From sequence record PQ306573.1: a stretch of 64,000 bases of DNA. One strand, 5' to 3'. Every line of letters begins with the position of its first letter. Within the stretch, counting starts at the first letter, position 1. A model generated the notes under the pieces. It did no database searches. It saw only the letters and a list, made by a program, of their open reading frames with translations, and was not told the DNA's origin. The translations under genes were made by a program, and so were the position numbers. The stretch comes from Escherichia phage vB_EcoM_PTE-Eco05. Shown one piece after another: positions 2,783 to 57,562 of this stretch.

Positions 2783-3556
2783 TTAAATCCAGGAGCCGTA
2801 GATTGTGCCTGTAGCACCCCATGACGGTGAACTTCCGAATACTGCTCTGCCAGGAGAACCACCGCCGGATCTAGATAAGTGTTTACCCCATCCATCTCCG
2901 CCCCGACCTCCAGCATCACCGCCATTGCCTCCGCCGTATTGGGAAGTGTAACCGGCACTGCCCGGGGCGTCATAACTAGCATTACCGCCAGGCCAATTAA
3001 CGCCACCGCCGCCGAGGCCAAATGGTCTGCCGCCACCGCCACCTGCTGTAGCATTTGGCGCCCAGCTATTCTGTAATGACACTGCACCACCACCACCACC
3101 ACCTGATGCAATAACGCCATAGTTCCAAATACGAAGTCTTCCGCCGATATCATTTTGGATTACATCGCCACCATTTGTGCCTGGGTTTCCGTTTACAGTA
3201 CCGTTACCACCTCGTCCCCACATATGAACTCCACCATGAATATTCAAAGTAACATATTCATTTGGCGTATCGCCATACATAAAGAATAATGGAACATCTT
3301 TACTATATGATACTAAATTTCCAGTGATATTAAACACTATAGGTGCACTACCTGCCTCAAAACATCTATCTCGGAACCATTGACCATTGAAGTTATGGTC
3401 TGCTCCAAGTGTGTGAATTACTTCAACAGATCGACCTATCATATTACTCATCCAAAACGGAATTCCCATTCTCAATCTCTGTGCGGCACCACCCATCCAA
3501 TTTTGTCCTGTATTAACTACTGCAGACGATCCTACCCACGGTCCTGTTACTGCCAT
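2783..3556 (-). CDS. 38: long tail fibre tip adhesin gp38 (T2-type, glycine-rich motifs)
   Basis: About 257 aa with repeated glycine-rich motifs ([40 protein letters not shown]); follows gene 37; ORF-track start 3568 is TTG, ATG at 3556 has a GGAGG RBS. Confidence 0.88.
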
Positions 3557-3568
3557 ATAAACCTCCAA

Positions 3569-3580
3569 GGGCCGAAGCCC
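3569..3580 (-). other. intercistronic RNA hairpin GGGC-UUCG-GCCC (minus-strand sense) between genes 37 and 38
   Basis: Plus-strand GGGCCGAAGCCC; 4-bp GC stem with UUCG tetraloop on the late transcript, immediately upstream of the gene 38 RBS. Confidence 0.5.
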
Positions 3581-3586
3581 CTCTTA

Positions 3587-6500
3587 TTATTTTAACAATG
3601 ATTTAACTAATGCTTTAAGTTCTTCAATTTCTGATTTAAGTTCCGCAATTTCTGTAGTATGTTCATTTATTGCAGCTGTATTTAAACCAATTACACCGTT
3701 ATAGTTCAAACGAAGTAAAGCTTCGCCATCGGGGTCACCTTCAACTAATTCTGGTAAAATAGCTTGAACTTCTTGGGCTATCAAACCGGCGTTAGGTTCC
3801 CATTTCTGATTGCCTTCTTCGTCCGTTCCACGTTTCTGCATATAAGTGTAACCGTTAATTTTAGAAAGCTTCTCAGAAGCATTTTCAAATTTAACAAGGT
3901 CTTTTTTAACACGAATATCAGAACGGACATAAACATCACGGACAAACGTTGAATAACTATCATTTGCCTGAACGAGATGCCCATGAGAAACGATAGCTCT
4001 TCCAACTTCTGTCCAAAAAGCACCGGTTGAATCCCAAAGCCCAGGATGAGATTGATAGCCTGCTCCCCAGTTTGCAATATGTATACCATTGGCAACCATA
4101 TTGATTCGGCCGTCACCACCATGAACTAATCCGGTGTCATTATCACCAATAACAACACATGCGCCTGTCCATGCAGGGTCACCTCCACCAGCTGATATTC
4201 TTACTCCAGCTTTAACCATGTCAGGAACGTACATGTTTCCATTATGGTGGAATTCGAAGATAGCTTGTGGGTCGGAACCGTTTTCCTGATTACCTACACG
4301 AATAATACCTTGTGCCCAGTTATTAGGAATGCGTCGCATACCAAAATCAACACCAGATACGTATCCATCATTCGTAATAACAGATTTTCCTTTGATAATT
4401 GGATAATAACTATCATTACCGACGTAGCCAAAATCCACAAATACGGGAGCTTCCTGGCGCCATTGATTTCCCCAATCGCCGGCCTGGTGTGCGGTCCAGA
4501 CCGACCCATTTATATAAATTCGGTCCCTATTAAAATTAAAAGTGGCAGTCCCTTCCGGGTTTAAAGCAATATCACCACCATTATTAACATATATGCCTGA
4601 TCTATTTTGGAAACTATAAAACGATATGGCATTATCAGCACCACCATTACCTACATACCAGTTATCAACGCCTGCTTTTTGTCCTTTCAAATAGCCAGAT
4701 TCGGTTGCCGTGCTATTAATAACGATGGCATCAGAGTTTGCATTAAGAGTTAAGCGACCTGTCATCGTGTCGCCTTCTTTAGAAACACGGGTAGCTATTG
4801 CATCGCGAATATTTGTAGTGTCTCCTGCTGAAGTAAACGATTTCCAAATATCCGAGAAAATATTACCATTACGAGCAATAGTAGCTTCACCGCCGCCGAC
4901 CTGAACGTTATCTGGGAAGTTAACAGTACCGTCTTGATTAAAACGAGACGTATGGCCTTGTGAACCATCTTCTTTCAGATGATGAATAACGAATGTACCC
5001 GAACTAATTTCAGTACCTAAAGACCAAACAGCTTTACCATTTAAAAACTTCTGTTTAACAATAGGATAATATTTGCTTACAGCATCATCATCAATTTCCT
5101 GGAAAATAGGAGCCGCTTGAGCATATTGAATATCATAACCACCAGCGCCTGCGCCATGACCAGTAAATTTAATATAGCCGTTTGCTGCGAACGTATTGTA
5201 ACTTGATTGTAAATCTGGAATAGTAACTTTACCAGTATCTAAAGCCATACTAAACGGGCGAAGTGGACCGATATCACCATTTTTGCCTTCACCATAAGCA
5301 GTCGGAATAATATGAAGACTACCTTCTGAACGTCTAAAAATGGCTCCATAATCTGCGTTCCAAATACGAAGCGCATTCACTGCTCCAGATGAAATTTCGC
5401 CTGTTGTGTGAACTCCTCTATTTCCAGCAGTAACACCAGATGATTCAAATGAACCGTTAACGTTCATTTCTACTTCACCTGTTGTAAGTCTTTGAATATA
5501 GCTCATCCAACTAGTTGCATCAGAAATTTCCATGACGTTTTTACGATTACCTACACTAGGATTAGTAAACGTATTGCCCCACACAGAAATTGTCATATTA
5601 TCAACTGAACTAGCTCCGGTCGTGTTACCTCTAAACATCAGTGTAGAAGCATTATTTCTACCATCGATATTAACAGAACCACCAATAACGTCAATATTAC
5701 CAGGAGTAACTAACAAACCGCCGTGAGTATTAATGTTTGTGGTACCCTTGCCGCGGAAATAATGATGATAGTTACCGCCTTGATAATATCCTAAAAGAGT
5801 CTGACCATCTCCAAACGCGTTATTATCGTGATATGTCACGACAGTAGCGAGAGCATAGTTTTCAGTTGGAGGAGTAGTTAAATCGGTTCCGTTAGTAGAA
5901 TATCCAGCTACAAATTTTCTTAGGCTAGTTGTTTCGCTGGGACTAAATAAAAATGTTTTCGTTCCATTATTAACGCTAAAATAATATCCATCTTGATGCC
6001 ATTTAAATCCAGTATCATTATCGCCAAGAGAAATTGAAGCAGTCCCTAATTCAGAGTATCCTTTATTGCCACCAGGAGTACCAACAGAAATAGAATGGCC
6101 TGCTTTCAATCCACCTGACCAGGTAAACGACCAAAGATAAGTGTCTAAGCCATCTCCAGTATACCAAGTTATTCCATCATTATCTTTAACTTCATGGAAT
6201 ACACCAGCGCCTACAGCATTGCGCATAACACGGAGATGATTAATAGCAGTAGTGCTTTCAGACAATGGAACGTTGTCTGCCATAGAATAAATGTCATAAT
6301 CGCTCGTAGATTTATTATTAGTAATAACTCTATTTGTCAAAATCTGAGGAGTTGACATAGATTTCCATGCTGATACTTCAGGTGAAGTAAATAGTCCACT
6401 GCCCGAAAATGCATAGGTGCTTTCATCACCAGCGGCGTAGTCTTTAACGCGGATATTAACTACTTGCGTAGTTAATCCATCATTAGCCGGTGCATAAATA

Positions 6501-6906: not shown

Positions 6907-7563
6907 TTAATAATAGCCGAAATCTTGAACAGAATCCTTAATAACAATTTGGTCAAATCGTGGAACATGTGAGGGTTGAGATGCAGGATTCTGTGAGAAA
7001 AAGTTTGGGGCAGTTAGCGCGCCGGTCATCGTATCTCCTGAACGGAGTACACGACTGTTTGCATTAGCATTAACTGTATTTATTTGACTATCAACATAAT
7101 CTTTGCGAGTAAGGTCGTAATTATTTAAAGGTGCTAACGTTGTGGCTCTGAATTGAGATGCTTCAATAACGCCTTTAGAACTTATATTACCGGTGCGAGT
7201 ATCAATTACAACAGTTCTTTCACCTGTACCTTGAGATGATTTAAACCCAATACCATACCACGAAACAATATCCATGTTTGTTTGGTCGAATGTCGCGGCG
7301 TCAGCACCACCAGAAAAAATACCATTCGTTTGGTCATCTGCTGTTTTGACTGCAACACCTTCGTTAAAGATTACCTTTTTGAGATATGTCCCACCATTTG
7401 CTTTAGATACGAAATCGTTATCAGCCGCTTTTGGCTTGTTATATTCGGTGTATAATTTAAATGTTTTATATAGGATGTCATCGCCAGCTGGCATTAAAGG
7501 AAAATTGCCTTGATGCCATATGACGGAACCACCAACTGTACTTCCGGCTTTTAAATCGGCCAT
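6907..7563 (-). CDS. 36: long tail fibre proximal connector gp36
   Basis: Start set to ATG giving MADLKAGSTVGGSVIWHQGNFPL (T4 gp36-like, ~219 aa) with AGGAGA RBS; ORF-track start 7614 is a TTG extension. Confidence 0.9.
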   Translation of the reverse strand: MADLKAGSTVGGSVIWHQGNFPLMPAGDDILYKTFKLYTEYNKPKAADNDFVSKANGGTYLKKVIFNEGVAVKTADDQTNGIFSGGADAATFDQTNMDIVSWYGIGFKSSQGTGERTVVIDTRTGNISSKGVIEASQFRATTLAPLNNYDLTRKDYVDSQINTVNANANSRVLRSGDTMTGALTAPNFFSQNPASQPSHVPRFDQIVIKDSVQDFGYY

Positions 7564-12623: not shown

Positions 12624-12631
12624 TATTTATA
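12624..12631 (-). promoter_or_regulatory. late promoter TATAAATA for gene 34
   Basis: Plus-strand TATTTATA at 12624-12631, about 35 nt upstream of the gene 34 ATG. Confidence 0.7.
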
Positions 12632-12646
12632 AATGAGTAAAAGACT

Positions 12647-12676
12647 ATTTACGCTTTCGAACTAGTATGTTACTAT
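12647..12676 (+). promoter_or_regulatory. early-type promoter upstream of rnh (ATTTAC -35, TACTAT -10)
   Basis: ATTTAC 12647-12652, 18-nt spacer, TGTTACTAT ending 12676; divergent from the gene 34 late promoter. Confidence 0.45.
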
Positions 12677-15942: not shown

Positions 15943-15971
15943 GTTTACTTCTTCCCTGGATGTGTTAGTAT
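15943..15971 (+). promoter_or_regulatory. early-type promoter (GTTTAC ... TGTGTTAGTAT) upstream of frd.3-like ORF
   Basis: GTTTAC 15943-15948 and extended -10 ending 15971. Confidence 0.55.
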
Positions 15972-16000
15972 AGACCTATCAACAACATGAGGAAATCAAA

Positions 16001-16393
16001 ATGGAAATCGGAAAATCTTATATCATTAACCCTTTATTTAAAGATGACTTTGTTCAAGAAGCACCACACAATAACGCTAAGATGTTAAAATTGATTGAAC
16101 TCCACGGGCCTAGTTTTGTTGTAAACGGAATGAAACCTGATTATGATAGCGATACGTCAAACGTAGTAAGTGTAACTATGGAAGATGGTACTGTATGTTC
16201 TGCCGGTGGTGAAATTGAAACTTATTTTGAGATTTATTATGATGAGTTCAAATACTTTACTGAGGTAGATTTAGTAAAGCCTCAACCTACTAACGAAGGT
16301 ATAACTTTAGGTATAACAAAAATCCATTGTATCGTAGATGAAACTAACGTCGACGAAATCATCAAACTTTTGCAAAAAACTTTTAAAAAGTAG
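16001..16393 (+). CDS. hypothetical protein (frd.3 position)
   Basis: 130 aa ORF with RBS GAGGAAAT; between 32 and frd as in T4. Confidence 0.6.
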   Translation: MEIGKSYIINPLFKDDFVQEAPHNNAKMLKLIELHGPSFVVNGMKPDYDSDTSNVVSVTMEDGTVCSAGGEIETYFEIYYDEFKYFTEVDLVKPQPTNEGITLGITKIHCIVDETNVDEIIKLLQKTFKK

Positions 16394-26643: not shown

Positions 26644-26673
26644 GGCTTTTATCAACAACATGAGGAGAAAATT

Positions 26674-27174
26674 ATGAATATGCAATTGATTACTAATGAT
26701 ATGGTCGTAACCACTTTTGGAGACACAACTGACGGAATCCGGGTCTTTAAGAAAGGACGTCCAGTTGGTTATCTTACTGACCTCCGTGTTACACTGGCCA
26801 AAAATCTTAAAAAGAAAGTAAAACAAAAAGAGTATTCCACCCGATACGCTGAAGAGAAACGCGAAGCGATGCCGGAAGCAGTTAATGCCATGGTAGAATT
26901 TCTTCAAAACAATTTGACTAAATACGACGCTAATGTGTTTATTAATATTAGTCAACCAAACGTACATATCGCAGGTATAAAATTCTACATTATTTGCGAC
27001 CCTCTTACCGACAAATTCAACCGCCTCGGAATTTCAAGCCCGTATCATACAGCAGAAGAGTTGTGTGTATTGTTTGAATCGTACAAAATCCAGTGTGATG
27101 GTTTGAAAACCGTTCTTATCAATGGATTATCCCGAGATGAAATCATTGAGATTATTAAAACATGCTTAAAGTAA
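26674..27174 (+). CDS. hypothetical early protein, Alc-like by position and size (166 aa)
   Basis: ORF-track entry trimmed to the ATG at 26674 behind GAGGAG, downstream of the early promoter; T4 has alc (167 aa) between rnlA and the pseT.3/.2 spanins; identity not verified. Confidence 0.5.
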   Translation: MNMQLITNDMVVTTFGDTTDGIRVFKKGRPVGYLTDLRVTLAKNLKKKVKQKEYSTRYAEEKREAMPEAVNAMVEFLQNNLTKYDANVFINISQPNVHIAGIKFYIICDPLTDKFNRLGISSPYHTAEELCVLFESYKIQCDGLKTVLINGLSRDEIIEIIKTCLK

Positions 27175-40279: not shown

Positions 40280-40308
40280 TTTACAAACACACAGATGTGT
40301 GATACTAT
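40279..40308 (+). promoter_or_regulatory. early-type promoter (GTTTAC ... TGTGATACTAT)
   Basis: GTTTAC 40279-40284 overlapping the alt stop, TACTAT 40303-40308. Confidence 0.55.
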
Positions 40309-40337
40309 CATCCCATCAACAACATGAGGAAAACGTT

Positions 40338-40631
40338 ATGAAATCTATGCTTCGCTTTAATGGTCAAGAACTAGTAGTTGAAGATGCTATCCCAGCGGAT
40401 GATGCTTTTAACGAAGCTGTGATTGACGAATTGAATCGAGTATTCCCAGGTGCATTCCATATTGCTATGGAACCTCTTAAAAACTTTCGTGACCCTGAGC
40501 ACACTGATCAAATTTTTATCGGTGTAGTGACAGGTCATTTAGAAACAGAGGTACCAATGGTCGTATTAGTTAAATACTCTAAAGATGATACTCCATTTCG
40601 AGCACCAGCATTCCTTTCATTCCGTAAATAA
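40338..40631 (+). CDS. hypothetical protein (97 aa)
   Basis: ORF-track entry trimmed to the ATG behind GAGGAAAAC, downstream of the promoter. Confidence 0.5.
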   Translation: MKSMLRFNGQELVVEDAIPADDAFNEAVIDELNRVFPGAFHIAMEPLKNFRDPEHTDQIFIGVVTGHLETEVPMVVLVKYSKDDTPFRAPAFLSFRK

Positions 40632-54255: not shown

Positions 54256-54262
54256 CGAAAAA

Positions 54263-54278
54263 GGGACCGTAAGGTCCC
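54263..54278. terminator. bidirectional terminator hairpin (GGGACC-GUAA-GGUCCC) between rnlB (+) and gene 24 (-)
   Basis: 6-bp stem with GNRA-type loop, flanked by AAAAA upstream and TTTTT downstream. Confidence 0.7.
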
Positions 54279-54286
54279 TTTTTCGT

Positions 54287-55570
54287 TTATTCATCTATAA
54301 TAATTTTAGGCAATTTAACACCGAGTAAAACAGACAAGTCTGAACGTCCCGCCATTTTATCCATGTCCCCGCCATCAATTATTCTCGCTTCTTTTTCATC
54401 TTTTGCTACTGTGTAAGGATTTGCTGATAAAGCGTATCTAACCAATAAACCAATAGACGGTTGCAAGCTTTCTGGATCAACTACAACTTTAAAAGCACCG
54501 ACATGTTCCGGGTCATCTAAATCTACTCCTTCAGTGTATGGAGCATAAAAGATGGACCCTACAATTTCTTTTTCGCCGATATTTTCTACAACACCCACAA
54601 TAACATAATCTAACGGACTGTTGGTATCGCAGTAAAGAGGTAATCCATTTGCCAAGAATCCATAAGCATTTTGTGAAAGATACTTGTCATCTTCGGGCTT
54701 ATGTTTTAACCAACCAGAAGCAGCAAGAATAGCAGCTGCACGAGCTGAGGCTACACAAAACGTCGCAGTATAAGTTGACTCTTTTTGAATGTGTGATACC
54801 ATTTCACACACCATTCGATATAATGAACGACCTGCTTCTGGAGCTGATGCATAGCTCAAGTCAATAAATCCAGTGTCAGTAATTCCAGTAACTTTATAAC
54901 GTTTCGATACAGTAATTAAAGACTGAAGAATATCTTTATTAATTTCATCTGCCATTTCAGTAGCAAGCAAATCTTCTAAGAAGTTAGGGGCATCAAATCC
55001 ATTCGCTTCCAAATCTTGCGCTAATTCAACCGTGAGACCAGTTTTAAGTTTACGAGATTTGACTGAAGTTTGCCATTTATTAATCTGGAATCTTGCATCA
55101 GAAATTTCGCTACCAGAGCTTTCAAATTTGCTTGTTACCGCTGCATCTGAAAATAACCGTACCTTTAAATGAACGACTGCAATCTGAAGAGCTAATTCTA
55201 GATCACTTTCTTGAATATCTGCAAATGGTGTATCTTCTAACACTTTATAGACGATATTATTATATTTGAAAAAATCGCCTTTATTTAGTGTGACTTTTGA
55301 TTCTTCTGTGAGCTCAGTAATTTTTTCTCGGTCTACATATCCAACTTCACCCGCATAAGTAGCGCCAGTTTTAAATGTGAATTCGTTATCTGGGTTAAGA
55401 TATTTGATACCATAAAAAGCAGCAACAGGTTGATTAGTTCTTTGTGTTGCTACAATGTCAGAATATATTAATTTAGTCGTAGCGCGAGTCAAAGCAACGA
55501 GATTTGGGCGACCAATTGAGTTGCTAGTAGACGTTGTAGATTCACGCAATAATTTTTGGATTTTACTCAT
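54287..55570 (-). CDS. 24: capsid vertex protein gp24
   Basis: 427 aa, same length as T4 gp24 and paralogous to gp23. Confidence 0.95.
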   Translation of the reverse strand: MSKIQKLLRESTTSTSNSIGRPNLVALTRATTKLIYSDIVATQRTNQPVAAFYGIKYLNPDNEFTFKTGATYAGEVGYVDREKITELTEESKVTLNKGDFFKYNNIVYKVLEDTPFADIQESDLELALQIAVVHLKVRLFSDAAVTSKFESSGSEISDARFQINKWQTSVKSRKLKTGLTVELAQDLEANGFDAPNFLEDLLATEMADEINKDILQSLITVSKRYKVTGITDTGFIDLSYASAPEAGRSLYRMVCEMVSHIQKESTYTATFCVASARAAAILAASGWLKHKPEDDKYLSQNAYGFLANGLPLYCDTNSPLDYVIVGVVENIGEKEIVGSIFYAPYTEGVDLDDPEHVGAFKVVVDPESLQPSIGLLVRYALSANPYTVAKDEKEARIIDGGDMDKMAGRSDLSVLLGVKLPKIIIDE

Positions 55571-55597: not shown

Positions 55598-55605
55598 TAT
55601 TTATA
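55598..55605 (-). promoter_or_regulatory. late promoter TATAAATA for gene 24
   Basis: Plus-strand TATTTATA at 55598-55605, about 28 nt upstream of the gene 24 ATG. Confidence 0.7.
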
Positions 55606-55611
55606 AAGATT

Positions 55612-55641
55612 GTTTACAACGTATTTGGTATGTGATACTAT
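55612..55641 (+). promoter_or_regulatory. early-type promoter (GTTTAC ... TGTGATACTAT) for the ORF between genes 24 and 23
   Basis: GTTTAC 55612-55617 and TACTAT 55636-55641, back-to-back with the gene 24 late promoter. Confidence 0.55.
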
Positions 55642-55671
55642 AGACTTATCAACTACAGAGGAGTAAACAAA

Positions 55672-55941
55672 ATGACTAAAGCACGTTTCTTACGAGATAC
55701 TTTAAAAGTTCTGGAAGCTGAAGCAGTTAAGTTAGTAGAAAAATATGGTGCAAAAGTTAATGGTAATGCCTTCAACAAAGTATGGATGAAAGTTGACTCT
55801 GAAGCTCGAGCTAAAGGTTATTGGGCCACTGATAAACTTGCATCATTCAAAAACAAAGACGGTTCTCCGGCATATGTCCAAGAAGGTATGCCTAATTGGC
55901 AAAATATTTTGAAAACTTACATCGAAATTGCACAGAAATAA
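55672..55941 (+). CDS. hypothetical early protein (89 aa) embedded between late genes 24 and 23
   Basis: ORF track; own early-type promoter, RBS GAGGAGTAAACAAA and downstream hairpin; occupies the slot where T4 carries segD (as recalled) but has no GIY-YIG motif. Confidence 0.55.
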   Translation: MTKARFLRDTLKVLEAEAVKLVEKYGAKVNGNAFNKVWMKVDSEARAKGYWATDKLASFKNKDGSPAYVQEGMPNWQNILKTYIEIAQK

Positions 55942-55951
55942 AACCAAAAAT

Positions 55952-55969
55952 GGGAGACCGAAGTCTCCC
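55952..55969 (-). terminator. terminator hairpin downstream of gene 23 (GGGAGAC-UUCG-GUCUCCC on the minus transcript, then U-run)
   Basis: Plus strand GGGAGACCGAAGTCTCCC, the reverse complement of the element at 15894 and 33676; minus transcript continues AUUUUUGG. Confidence 0.65.
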
Positions 55970-55993
55970 AAAATAAGATTTAATCAATTAAGA

Positions 55994-57562
55994 TTAGATG
56001 CCTTTTACATATACACGGCGGAAGTAAGCGTTCTTACCAAGGCTGTTCAGGATAGACGGCATACCTGACTGGATGCGAGCACCTGGAGCCTGCAGGGAAC
56101 TTTCAGCAAACGGGTTAACACCGATACCGTAACGAGTTTTAAAGCCCATTACCGGCTGGAAGTTCTTAGGATCGGAACCACGCAGTGGGGTAAGTGCAAC
56201 GTAAGGAGCATAGTAAATACCTGCATCCATTTCGTTAGCGCCTTTGTAACCAACGGTGAAGTAATCCTGTTTAGCATACTGGTCGATGTATACGCGGTAT
56301 TTACCACCAAGTACACCGGCAAATACAGACTTAGTAGTGTCGGTATTAAAACCAGAAGCTAGACCCTGTGCAGCGTAAGAAATACCAGTATCAACTGAAG
56401 CCAGTACGTTAACTACGTTACGGGAAGCGATAATGAAGTTACCTTCACCACGACCGGTTTGACGAGCAATTTCAACTGCTTCTTTATCAATCTGGAACAA
56501 CAGAGATTTAAAGCTTTCACCGGCCCAACGAGCACCACGGATATCAATCGGGTCCTGGAAGTCAAATACACCAGCTTTAGAACCCGGAGTCAGGGTCATA
56601 CCAGATTTACCAACCTGTGCTGAGTAGTTAATCCAATCAACAACTTCACGGTTGATTTCTAGCATAATTTCTGTAGCCAGAATACCGCTCAGTTCAGCAT
56701 CAGCATCCATACCGTGTACTGCACGGAGGTCTTGTGCTAATTCGATAGAGTAAGCAGCTTTCAGCTGGCGAGATTTAGCTTCGATAACTTGTTTATCGAT
56801 ACGGAAGCCCATTTCATTCCATGGGTTATCGGTAGAACCGTTGAAACCTTCCTGGAGTTCAGCGATAGAAGTAGCCATACCTTCAGCGATTTCTACCAGT
56901 GCACCAGCTTCCATTTGTTTCTTAACTTCTGCATCTAATTTAGCTGCATCAGTTGCACCAGAATCAAGTGTTACGACAGCAGAAGCTTGCAGATATACAG
57001 TACCAGTTTCTTGGAAGAAGTGAGTATAGATATCACCTACAACAGTAGTAGTGTCAGCAGCCAGAGCTGGGAATTTCTTAGCAGCACCCTGACCAGAGAA
57101 CATCGCGTCTGGGGCATACATCGGATGGAAAGCTTCTTTAGCGCCGGCAGCGATAGGGTCTTTACCATATACCGCACGGAGAGCAAATACCTGACCGGTC
57201 GGGCTGTTCATAGGCTGAACACCACAAATATCAAAAGCGATCAGATTAGGAATAGCACGACGAACCATACCCATAACTGCCGGCCCAATTTGGGTTACTG
57301 CACCAGAGGTTTGACCCGCTGCGATGTTCTGAGCATTATAACCATGGTCACCACCAATTTCAGCTTCGGTCAAGAAAGAACCAAATGCCTGAGCGATTTT
57401 CTCGTCTTTATATTCAGGGGATACTTCGAAATCTTTTTCCTGGTTTTCGAAGATTTTAGCGATAATAGCCTGCTTGCTATTAGCGATTTCCGGCAGGCCT
57501 TCACCTTCCAGCAGTTCTTTCCATTTGTCTACGAGCTGAGCTTTAGTTTTGATAGTAGTCAT
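55994..57562 (-). CDS. 23: major capsid protein gp23 (precursor)
   Basis: 522 aa, MTTIKTKAQLVDKWKELLEGEGLPEIANSKQAIIAKIFENQEKDF..., near-identical to T4 gp23. Confidence 0.98.
   Translation of the reverse strand: MTTIKTKAQLVDKWKELLEGEGLPEIANSKQAIIAKIFENQEKDFEVSPEYKDEKIAQAFGSFLTEAEIGGDHGYNAQNIAAGQTSGAVTQIGPAVMGMVRRAIPNLIAFDICGVQPMNSPTGQVFALRAVYGKDPIAAGAKEAFHPMYAPDAMFSGQGAAKKFPALAADTTTVVGDIYTHFFQETGTVYLQASAVVTLDSGATDAAKLDAEVKKQMEAGALVEIAEGMATSIAELQEGFNGSTDNPWNEMGFRIDKQVIEAKSRQLKAAYSIELAQDLRAVHGMDADAELSGILATEIMLEINREVVDWINYSAQVGKSGMTLTPGSKAGVFDFQDPIDIRGARWAGESFKSLLFQIDKEAVEIARQTGRGEGNFIIASRNVVNVLASVDTGISYAAQGLASGFNTDTTKSVFAGVLGGKYRVYIDQYAKQDYFTVGYKGANEMDAGIYYAPYVALTPLRGSDPKNFQPVMGFKTRYGIGVNPFAESSLQAPGARIQSGMPSILNSLGKNAYFRRVYVKGI

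Follow-up and report, generated by a model that had tools for sequence, protein, structure and literature searches.

What is an early-type gene doing on the opposite strand of a capsid module, between the gene for the major capsid protein and that for the capsid vertex protein of a T4-like phage, and is it a gene in its own right or what is left of a homing endonuclease? We addressed this question in Escherichia phage vB_EcoM_PTE-Eco05, a Mosigvirus (RB69-like), of which a stretch of 64,000 nucleotides (hereafter the window) was analyzed. The slot in question is bounded on the left by gene 24 (capsid vertex protein; 54287–55570, minus strand), assigned from the ORF list and from the gp24 homolog in the PhAPEC2 annotation, and on the right by gene 23 (major capsid protein; 55994–57562, minus strand), assigned from the ORF list and by comparison with PhAPEC2. 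A 751-bp stretch covering the slot is 99.6% identical to PhAPEC2, APCEc01, SF and many other Mosigvirus genomes. To the left of the slot, the plus strand carries rnlB, 24.2, 24.3 and hoc. A preliminary description of the locus, made from the sequence alone, had listed an 89-aa ORF, an early-type promoter back-to-back with the gene 24 late promoter, and a UUCG hairpin; reading the sequence again, we recovered every one of these elements, at the positions detailed below.

An early-type promoter stands back-to-back with the gene 24 late promoter

The islet is headed by a T4-type early (σ70) promoter (55612–55641, plus strand) that reads GTTTACA-N14-TGaTACTAT, with the −35 element GTTTACA at 55612–55618, the −10 element TACTAT at 55636–55641, a 17-nt spacer between TTTACA and TACTAT, and an extended −10 TG at 55633–55634. 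It displays the GTTTAC(A) −35 element, the spacer of about 17 nt and the TGn-extended TAnnnT −10 element of an early promoter, and the assignment draws on a σ70 scan, on a composite motif and on the prediction for the orthologous site in RB69. The generic σ70 scan detected the promoter together with its TG extension. In this AT-rich region, a loose scan of this kind operates on its own at chance level (2 sites found against 2.3 expected) and is therefore uninformative alone, so we replaced it with a phage-specific composite motif, GTTTAC-N15-TGNTAYWAT. Over the 64 kb, this motif occurs 8 times where chance would give 0.19, and none of 100 shuffles reached that number; 7 of the 8 occurrences are plus-strand ones. 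An exact fit to the motif at 55612, together with the enrichment, places the site in the phage’s own early-promoter class and bears out the early-type assignment of the preliminary description. The class agrees with the T4/PST-type early-promoter consensus TTTACW-N17-TAYWAT (Comeau 2014, PMC4122927).

The promoter runs into a promoter-leader cassette (55631–55676, plus strand) made up of the −10 box, the leader TATCAACTACAGAGGAG and the ATG. It belongs to the D2/D4 family of repeats, which heads several early ORFs in the genome and is present at 15961, 26650, 40298 and 55631. A strong Shine-Dalgarno sequence, GAGGAG (55658–55663, plus strand), is read directly from the sequence, 8 nt ahead of the ATG. 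On the other strand, gene 24 is preceded by an exact match to the T4-type late promoter box, TATAAATA (55605–55598, minus strand), which precedes the gene 24 ATG by 27 nt and is 7 nt away from the early −35 element, confirming the back-to-back arrangement. The late box is kept at all related loci examined, namely in VR20, VR5, T4 and the phages with an empty site described below, and the position of the early promoter is kept in VR20, VR5 and T4.

The hairpin at the far end is a canonical terminator for gene 23

At its other end, the islet is delimited by a C(UUCG)G stem-loop (55951–55970, minus strand), identified by terminator scan and folding as the intrinsic terminator of gene 23. Read on the minus strand, the hairpin TGGGAGAC-UUCG-GUCUCCCA (55970–55951) has an 8-bp stem and a UUCG loop and is followed by a UUUUUGGUUU tail, as is typical of a Rho-independent terminator. 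It begins 10 nt past the stop codon of the 89-aa ORF and is stable on both strands, with z-scores of −4.2 on the minus strand and −4.9 on the other. The plus-strand version has a CGAA loop, then AAAAUAAGA, without a U tract; the sequence after the hairpin on this strand is AAAAUAAGAUUU, and the terminator scan scores the minus strand only. No canonical plus-strand terminator occurs for about 2.5 kb downstream of the ORF. The earlier statement that the islet has a terminator of its own is thus half right: the hairpin is present, but it is a canonical terminator only for gene 23, on the minus strand. A predicted terminator is placed at the hairpin in the PhAPEC2 annotation, and the counterpart in VR20 is a bidirectional terminator.

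Coding status and predicted fold of the 89-aa ORF

Between promoter and hairpin, the ORF list contains the 89-aa ORF at 55672–55941 (plus strand), just as the preliminary description had it; homology and predicted fold characterize it as a member of phrog_6003 and an intact homolog of RB69ORF188c/189c. Its product, of 10.1 kDa and pI 9.6, is hydrophilic and devoid of cysteine. The match to the phrog_6003 profile is full-length (E 2.1e-45; residues 1–89 against profile positions 1–90 of 90), the family itself having no assigned function, and in PhAPEC2 the ORF is called a hypothetical protein ‘similar to RB69ORF188c’. A tblastn search returned 239 phage records with the ORF, split between 119 close copies (90% identity or more), mogra (81%) and 119 divergent ones (below 60%). 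About 120 Mosigvirus records hold it at an identity of at least 95%, and the product is 100% identical to proteins annotated in dozens of GenBank Mosigvirus records. Divergent copies in VR20 (Gaprivervirus), in VR5 and 04086 (Dhakavirus) and in two metagenomic T-even contigs also occupy the gp23/gp24 slot on the opposite strand, a position that holds wherever copies below 60% identity were checked.

The ORF evolves under purifying selection, with Nei-Gojobori dN/dS values of about 0.03–0.14, including 0.10 for VR5 against 04086 (dS 0.59), 0.03 for 04086 against mobillu, and 0.13 for the window ORF against a 62%-identical relative. An AlphaFold2 model computed from a 14-sequence alignment is confident (pLDDT 89, pTM 0.76) and comprises a helix (residues 3–25), a second helix (31–48), a β hairpin (56–60/66–70) and a third helix (76–88). 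Residues M1, K3, F6, G31, N32, N35 and Q70 are invariant across divergent members, and the family alignment reveals an (N/H)GN motif in the loop joining helices 1 and 2. Judged by these comparisons, the 89-aa ORF is a genuine gene that encodes a protein. In RB69, mogra and 310Ecol104PP, the copy is frameshifted or truncated.

Searches for function and for distant family members

The preliminary description had noted that the ORF carries neither a GIY-YIG nor an HNH motif, and a Pfam scan agrees: GIY-YIG, HNH or any other nuclease domain was absent at E up to 10 from the ORF and from 14 family members. Scans of the protein against Pfam, NCBIfam and PADLOC returned nothing significant, PHROGs gave no significant family other than phrog_6003, and a sequence profile search of the PDB returned nothing below E 0.02. 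In a Foldseek search against the BFVD viral models, the sole match was another family member, and an Rfam scan of the slot yielded nothing near any gathering score. Literature searches found no papers under the names of the ORF and nothing under ‘anti-late RNA’. The Pfam family DUF4859 was rejected as a candidate, its match being sub-threshold (17.9 bits against a gathering cut-off of 22.6) and shared by 2 of 14 members.

An exhaustive HMM search of 1.8 billion representatives produced 9 proteins. Two HMM matches to giant Ig-repeat proteins (P0022 and P0024) proved to be repeat-summed artefacts, with 9–11 repeats contributing 2–12 bits each; the repeats of P0022 have i-Evalues between 1e4 and 1e7 per domain and the model fold is helical, so that kinship with Big_2 Ig-like domains fails. 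A 160-aa match was dropped as a chimeric read. The distant members are all found in non-T4 phages: an uncharacterized 35-kb phage contig, contigs of 141 kb and 63 kb, a siphovirus remotely like 42-kb Serratia phages, and the Vequintavirinae phage ABPH49. Most of these non-T4 copies lie within arrays of small same-strand ORFs without Pfam domains. On the siphovirus contig, the family gene directly follows the tail-tip gene. The family is small and confined to virulent enterobacterial phages.

Slot occupancy across T4-like phages

In most other T4-like genera sampled, the gap between genes 23 and 24 is empty: it measures 80–95 bp in RB14 and AR1 (Tequatrovirus), R3_1 (Marfavirus), Melville (Gelderlandvirus) and Miller (Pseudotevenvirus). 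In these phages, the late box abuts the terminator hairpin almost directly, a layout which implies that the antisense cassette is placed exactly between the gene 24 late box and the gene 23 hairpin. The cargo of occupied slots varies. Mosig-, Dhaka- and Gaprivervirus have the ORF, some of them together with a SegD-like homing endonuclease, and T4 has only segD; the back-to-back pair of late and early promoters is present in each of these occupied slots. T6 and RB18 also have segD without the small ORF, and in Krischvirus AV108 the slot holds two tiny same-strand ORFs. Comparison of these genomes shows the slot to be a shared landing pad, at which either insertion or loss may underlie the differences between genera.

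The most informative occupants are those that hold two genes. In mobillu, JM10 and 04086, an intact GIY-YIG endonuclease of 219–223 aa, 59% identical to T4 SegD, lies on the same strand, with 3 nt separating the ORF stop codon from its ATG. About 38 records contain a SegD-like endonuclease at 80% identity or more by tblastn, and it adjoins the small ORF wherever coordinates were checked. Because the small ORF occurs alongside intact SegD orthologs, the two are separate genes able to share the slot. The cassettes of mobillu, JM10, 04086, ATK47 and the LF82-series agree with the window in slot and promoter and carry a homologous small ORF (about 31% amino acid identity), but mobillu-type cassettes have an endonuclease after the ORF, whereas the window has none.

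Exchange of the whole cassette in mobillu

In mobillu, gp24 and gp23 are 98–100% identical to those of the window, whereas the stretch from leader to hairpin carries a Dhakavirus-type ORF (98% identical to that of 04086) plus the endonuclease. The promoter is identical up to the leader, where the left junction is seen as a change from TATCAACTACAGAGGAG in the window to TATCAAAACATGAGGAG in mobillu. Identity between the two phages switches in the leader and in the hairpin, at about positions 2465 and 3480 of the mobillu stretch, respectively. The phage thereby offers a clean natural example of whole-cassette replacement within an otherwise rigid capsid module, the small ORF having given way to a divergent ORF and a homing endonuclease with both junctions in shared regulatory sequence. 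The comparison shows a cassette exchanged as a module via recombination in the conserved promoter-leader and terminator, and ordinary homologous recombination, without endonuclease action, could accomplish such a swap.

T4 segD occupies the same slot with different cargo

Examination of the T4 locus substantiated the statement in the preliminary description that segD sits in the gene 23/24 slot, and it does so on the antisense strand. T4 and the window have in common the slot, the antisense orientation and a C(UUCG)G-type gene 23 terminator. They differ in cargo: SegD shows no homology to the window ORF, and T4 has no counterpart of the small ORF. A BLASTP comparison with T4 SegD, which included the C-terminal DNA-binding region for which the preliminary description had proposed a search, gave as its best match 17 aa in the middle of SegD, at an E-value of 0.022 that applies to a single comparison; the C-terminal region itself yielded no similarity. 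Upstream of T4 segD we found TATTTATAAAGTTATTTACA, then 17 nt, then TGATATTAT, again a late box and an early promoter back-to-back. The putative segD promoter, which reads TTTACA-17-TGaTATTAT and lies at 107254–107282 of T4, matches σ70 at 10 of 12 positions, has the TG extension and is positioned as in the window. The promoter pairs of VR20 and VR5 are arranged in the same manner, with different spacer sequences.

Among T4 endonuclease genes, segD is the only one antisense to its neighbors; its promoter was not found, and its transcript levels were judged to be probably vanishingly low (Edgell et al. 2010, PMC2988022). It has since been classed as ‘early-RNA, middle-protein’, with accumulation of the SegD protein (Wolfram-Schauerte et al. 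2022, PMC9697503). The early segD RNA of T4 fits a conserved promoter that fires early; of the experimental data at hand, it comes closest to standing in for the window promoter. From the promoter class and by analogy with T4 segD, we infer that the 89-aa ORF is transcribed early in this phage as well. [quoted passage not shown]

Discussion

On these observations, the islet is probably a self-contained, non-essential early accessory cassette that has been inserted on the opposite strand, with the gene 23 hairpin on one side of it and the gene 24 late promoter on the other. On the basis of the promoter class and the orthologous T4 data, the host σ70 RNA polymerase would fire from the promoter-leader (55612–55671) in the first minutes of infection, giving rise to a short leadered mRNA and, from it, a basic soluble protein of 10 kDa. 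This transcript would meet only a hairpin that lacks a U tract on the plus strand, so that its 3′ end would probably arise in one of three ways: stabilization by the hairpin, Rho action, or read-through into sequence antisense to gene 23. Three features, namely the early promoter, the patchy occurrence and the existence of viable isolates with a broken copy, together argue for a dispensable early accessory gene that is shared horizontally. As to what the protein does, the genomic context hints at a host or defense target, in host takeover or anti-defense, and not at capsid assembly, a suggestion that we make with low confidence.

The preliminary description had left a choice between a different cargo gene and the C-terminal remnant of a degraded endonuclease. 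The former is upheld by the data, which show a conserved accessory gene behind an early-type promoter in the slot where T4 has segD. The latter supposes that the ORF is the decayed C-terminal, DNA-binding end of a SegD-like GIY-YIG homing endonuclease that formerly occupied the slot. Decay of homing endonuclease genes is common in phages, and both the slot and the orientation agree with T4 segD. However, similarity to T4 SegD is not significant; GIY-YIG, HNH, other nuclease or DNA-binding Pfam domains are missing; strong purifying selection extends over the full length of an ORF that has a confident fold of its own; family members are found in unrelated phages without a homing endonuclease gene nearby; and the ORF lies upstream of intact SegD orthologs, with both present together. 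This co-occurrence, combined with the missing homology, refutes the remnant idea and leaves it with next to no probability. The same gene pairs prompt a different thought, namely that the protein is the partner of a SegD-like endonuclease, with a role in specificity, immunity or regulation, and that the islet represents one half of a mobile element of two genes, the half without the endonuclease. In about 38 records, the two genes are 3 nt apart on one strand behind one promoter, and the pair has moved as a unit into a Mosigvirus backbone. Such a dependence is quite improbable given how often each gene is found alone: most carriers (about 120 Mosigvirus records, VR5 and VR20) have the ORF without the endonuclease gene, T4, T6 and RB18 have segD without the ORF, and family members in other phages have no adjacent homing endonuclease gene.

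An RNA-level role would make the peptide secondary: an early plus-strand transcript, antisense to gene 23 or to read-through from gene 23 into gene 24, would tune the capsid genes. The cassette fills precisely the interval that separates a late terminator from a late promoter, and the missing plus-strand U-tract terminator makes read-through antisense to gene 23 plausible; some such read-through may indeed take place. We nevertheless consider this role unlikely, since dN/dS values of 0.03–0.14, and a fold conserved at 31% amino acid identity, indicate that the protein, and not the RNA sequence, is what selection maintains. Family members also reside in non-T4 contexts without capsid genes opposite, most T4-like genera have no cassette in the slot, the slot matches no Rfam family, and early promoters in T4 are normally shut down ahead of the late-gene peak. 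The location between gp23 and gp24 could equally suggest a capsid-related factor, such as an assembly chaperone, a decoration protein or an internal protein, and the PHROG search did give a very weak hit to a family called ‘internal virion protein’ (E 0.09). We regard a capsid function as very improbable: the promoter is of the early and not the late type and faces the opposite way, most T4-like genera that share this capsid do not have the ORF, the ORF is broken in RB69 and other viable isolates, and its homologs in other phages lie within early ORFan arrays.

A wider reading builds on the accessory cassette and is put forward tentatively, as a possibility that we hold to be less likely to be right than wrong. 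The ORF would found a family of early anti-defense or host-takeover effectors that passes horizontally between virulent phages of enterobacteria which are not related to one another (Straboviridae, Vequintavirinae-like and siphovirus), and the 23/24 promoter-leader would be an ancestral ‘socket’, a pre-existing early cassette that was invaded by the SegD lineage, with displacement of the small ORF in T4. If true, the ‘socket’ would account for two long-standing peculiarities of T4 segD: that it alone runs antisense, and that its promoter seemed to be missing.

Comparison with RB69 and with PeSL cassettes

The signals of the islet are not new to T-even genomics. For RB69, an HMM-predicted early promoter on the ORF strand (Pe:109605, score 29.9), a predicted late promoter (Pl:109573) and a TransTerm terminator labelled ‘23-><-RB69ORF188c’ have been reported (Nolan et al. 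2006, PMC1524935), and these three predicted signals correspond exactly to the three in the window. RB69 has the same gene in the same slot, with promoter, ribosome-binding site and hairpin identical to those of the window; in the reference sequence, two indels (+1 and −1) and a short divergent patch break its copy up into ORF188c and ORF189c, whereas the window copy is intact. The islet is therefore an already-annotated, genuine but ordinary accessory cassette of T-even genomes, with signals predicted for RB69 in 2006. The comparison tidies the annotation, in that the RB69 reference breaks one real gene into two ORFs. The value added here is modest: the remnant idea is rejected, the slot is linked to the promoter and orientation of T4 segD, and a whole-cassette swap is documented. 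The ORF protein is one of many uncharacterized early phage proteins, and it becomes interesting only if a host or defense target is found.

Modular shuffling has been described for PeSL regulatory cassettes (Arbiol 2010, PMC2839356; Comeau 2014, PMC4122927), which, when located inside the conserved core, go with plastic, non-essential genes (PMC2839356; PMC4122927). The window cassette differs from them in that its promoter is preceded by the gene 24 late box and not by a stem-loop, its only stem-loop being the gene 23 terminator downstream of the ORF, and in that it lies in a conserved capsid module and not in a hyperplastic region. Because no stem-loop is fused upstream of the promoter, the cassette resembles a PeSL functionally but not formally. 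The functional likeness lies in a strong σ70-like early promoter that is repeated at the starts of ORFans in the window, in a stem-loop that bounds the small ORFan, and in the mobillu replacement, the junctions of which fall within the promoter-leader and the hairpin.

Cassette replacement and disrupted copies of the small ORF

The region between gp24 and gp23 in mobillu (L013, 2465-3480) carries a Dhakavirus-type small ORF and a SegD-like endonuclease on a Mosigvirus backbone, and JM10 and the LF82-series phages show the same arrangement. The mobillu segment is a clean inter-genus replacement of the cassette: virtually none of the adjoining gp23 or gp24 sequence was co-converted. Disrupted copies of the small ORF were also found. 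Alignment of the RB69 copy (NC_004928, locus L006, 9292-9532) with window positions 55672-55941 revealed two indels, one of +1 and one of -1, together with a patch of ~20 nt in which divergent positions cluster, because of which the RB69 small ORF is annotated as two ORFs (188c and 189c). This disruption reflects either decay in the laboratory stock or 2003-era sequencing errors. The copies in mogra and 310Ecol104PP are truncated.

A family member with 61% identity to a metagenomic homolog occurs in a Vequintavirinae genome, MH533020 ('Acinetobacter phage ABPH49'; L015, 3995-4261), which shows that the small-ORF family crosses phage families. Its host is given as Acinetobacter, which seems surprising in view of the Vequintavirinae classification of the genome. 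P0006, a 90-aa family member (L009, 4001-4273), is evidently mis-annotated in one source (JGI), which calls it 'NADPH-dependent curcumin reductase CurA'. In the GenBank record of phage 04086 (L004), the ORF of a 223-aa GIY-YIG endonuclease (3271-3942) lacks annotation, and gp23 (4002-5561) appears as a truncated CDS, accompanied by spurious ORFs on the opposite strand.

Promoters and terminators

The window contains a second back-to-back promoter pair (12624-12676), in which a minus-strand late-type box (TATAAATA, 12624-12631) lies 15 nt from a plus-strand early-type promoter (12647-12676; one mismatch, ATTTAC). Several early ORFs in the window, moreover, are headed by a repeated promoter-leader cassette, TGTGATACTAT ... 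TATCAACAACATGAGGA ... ATG (15961-16006, 26650-26681, 40298-40343 and 55631-55676), and these repeats could provide PeSL-like homology for recombination. Downstream of gene 24, a bidirectional terminator common to the converging rnlB and gene 24 appears to lie at 54256-54290, as placed by homology with PhAPEC2 (L001, 1851-1892), whose annotation has it on both strands; a prediction also exists for RB69.

Comparison with T4 and other T-even phages

Immediately 5' of T4 segD (NC_000866, locus L005), we found an unannotated early-type promoter, TTTACA-17-TGaTATTAT, on the minus strand (7254-7282, corresponding to 107254-107282 of the record), which forms a back-to-back pair with the gene 24 late box. 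According to a 2010 review, a segD promoter was not found (PMC2988022); segD RNA was classed as early in 2022 omics data (PMC9697503). As for the flanking capsid gene, gp24 is single in the window and in T4, whereas Gaprivervirus, Dhakavirus and related metagenomic T-even phages carry two tandem paralogs, vertex proteins I and II (L002, 330-2894; L003, 338-2899; L009, 1337-3901; L011, 1338-3897).
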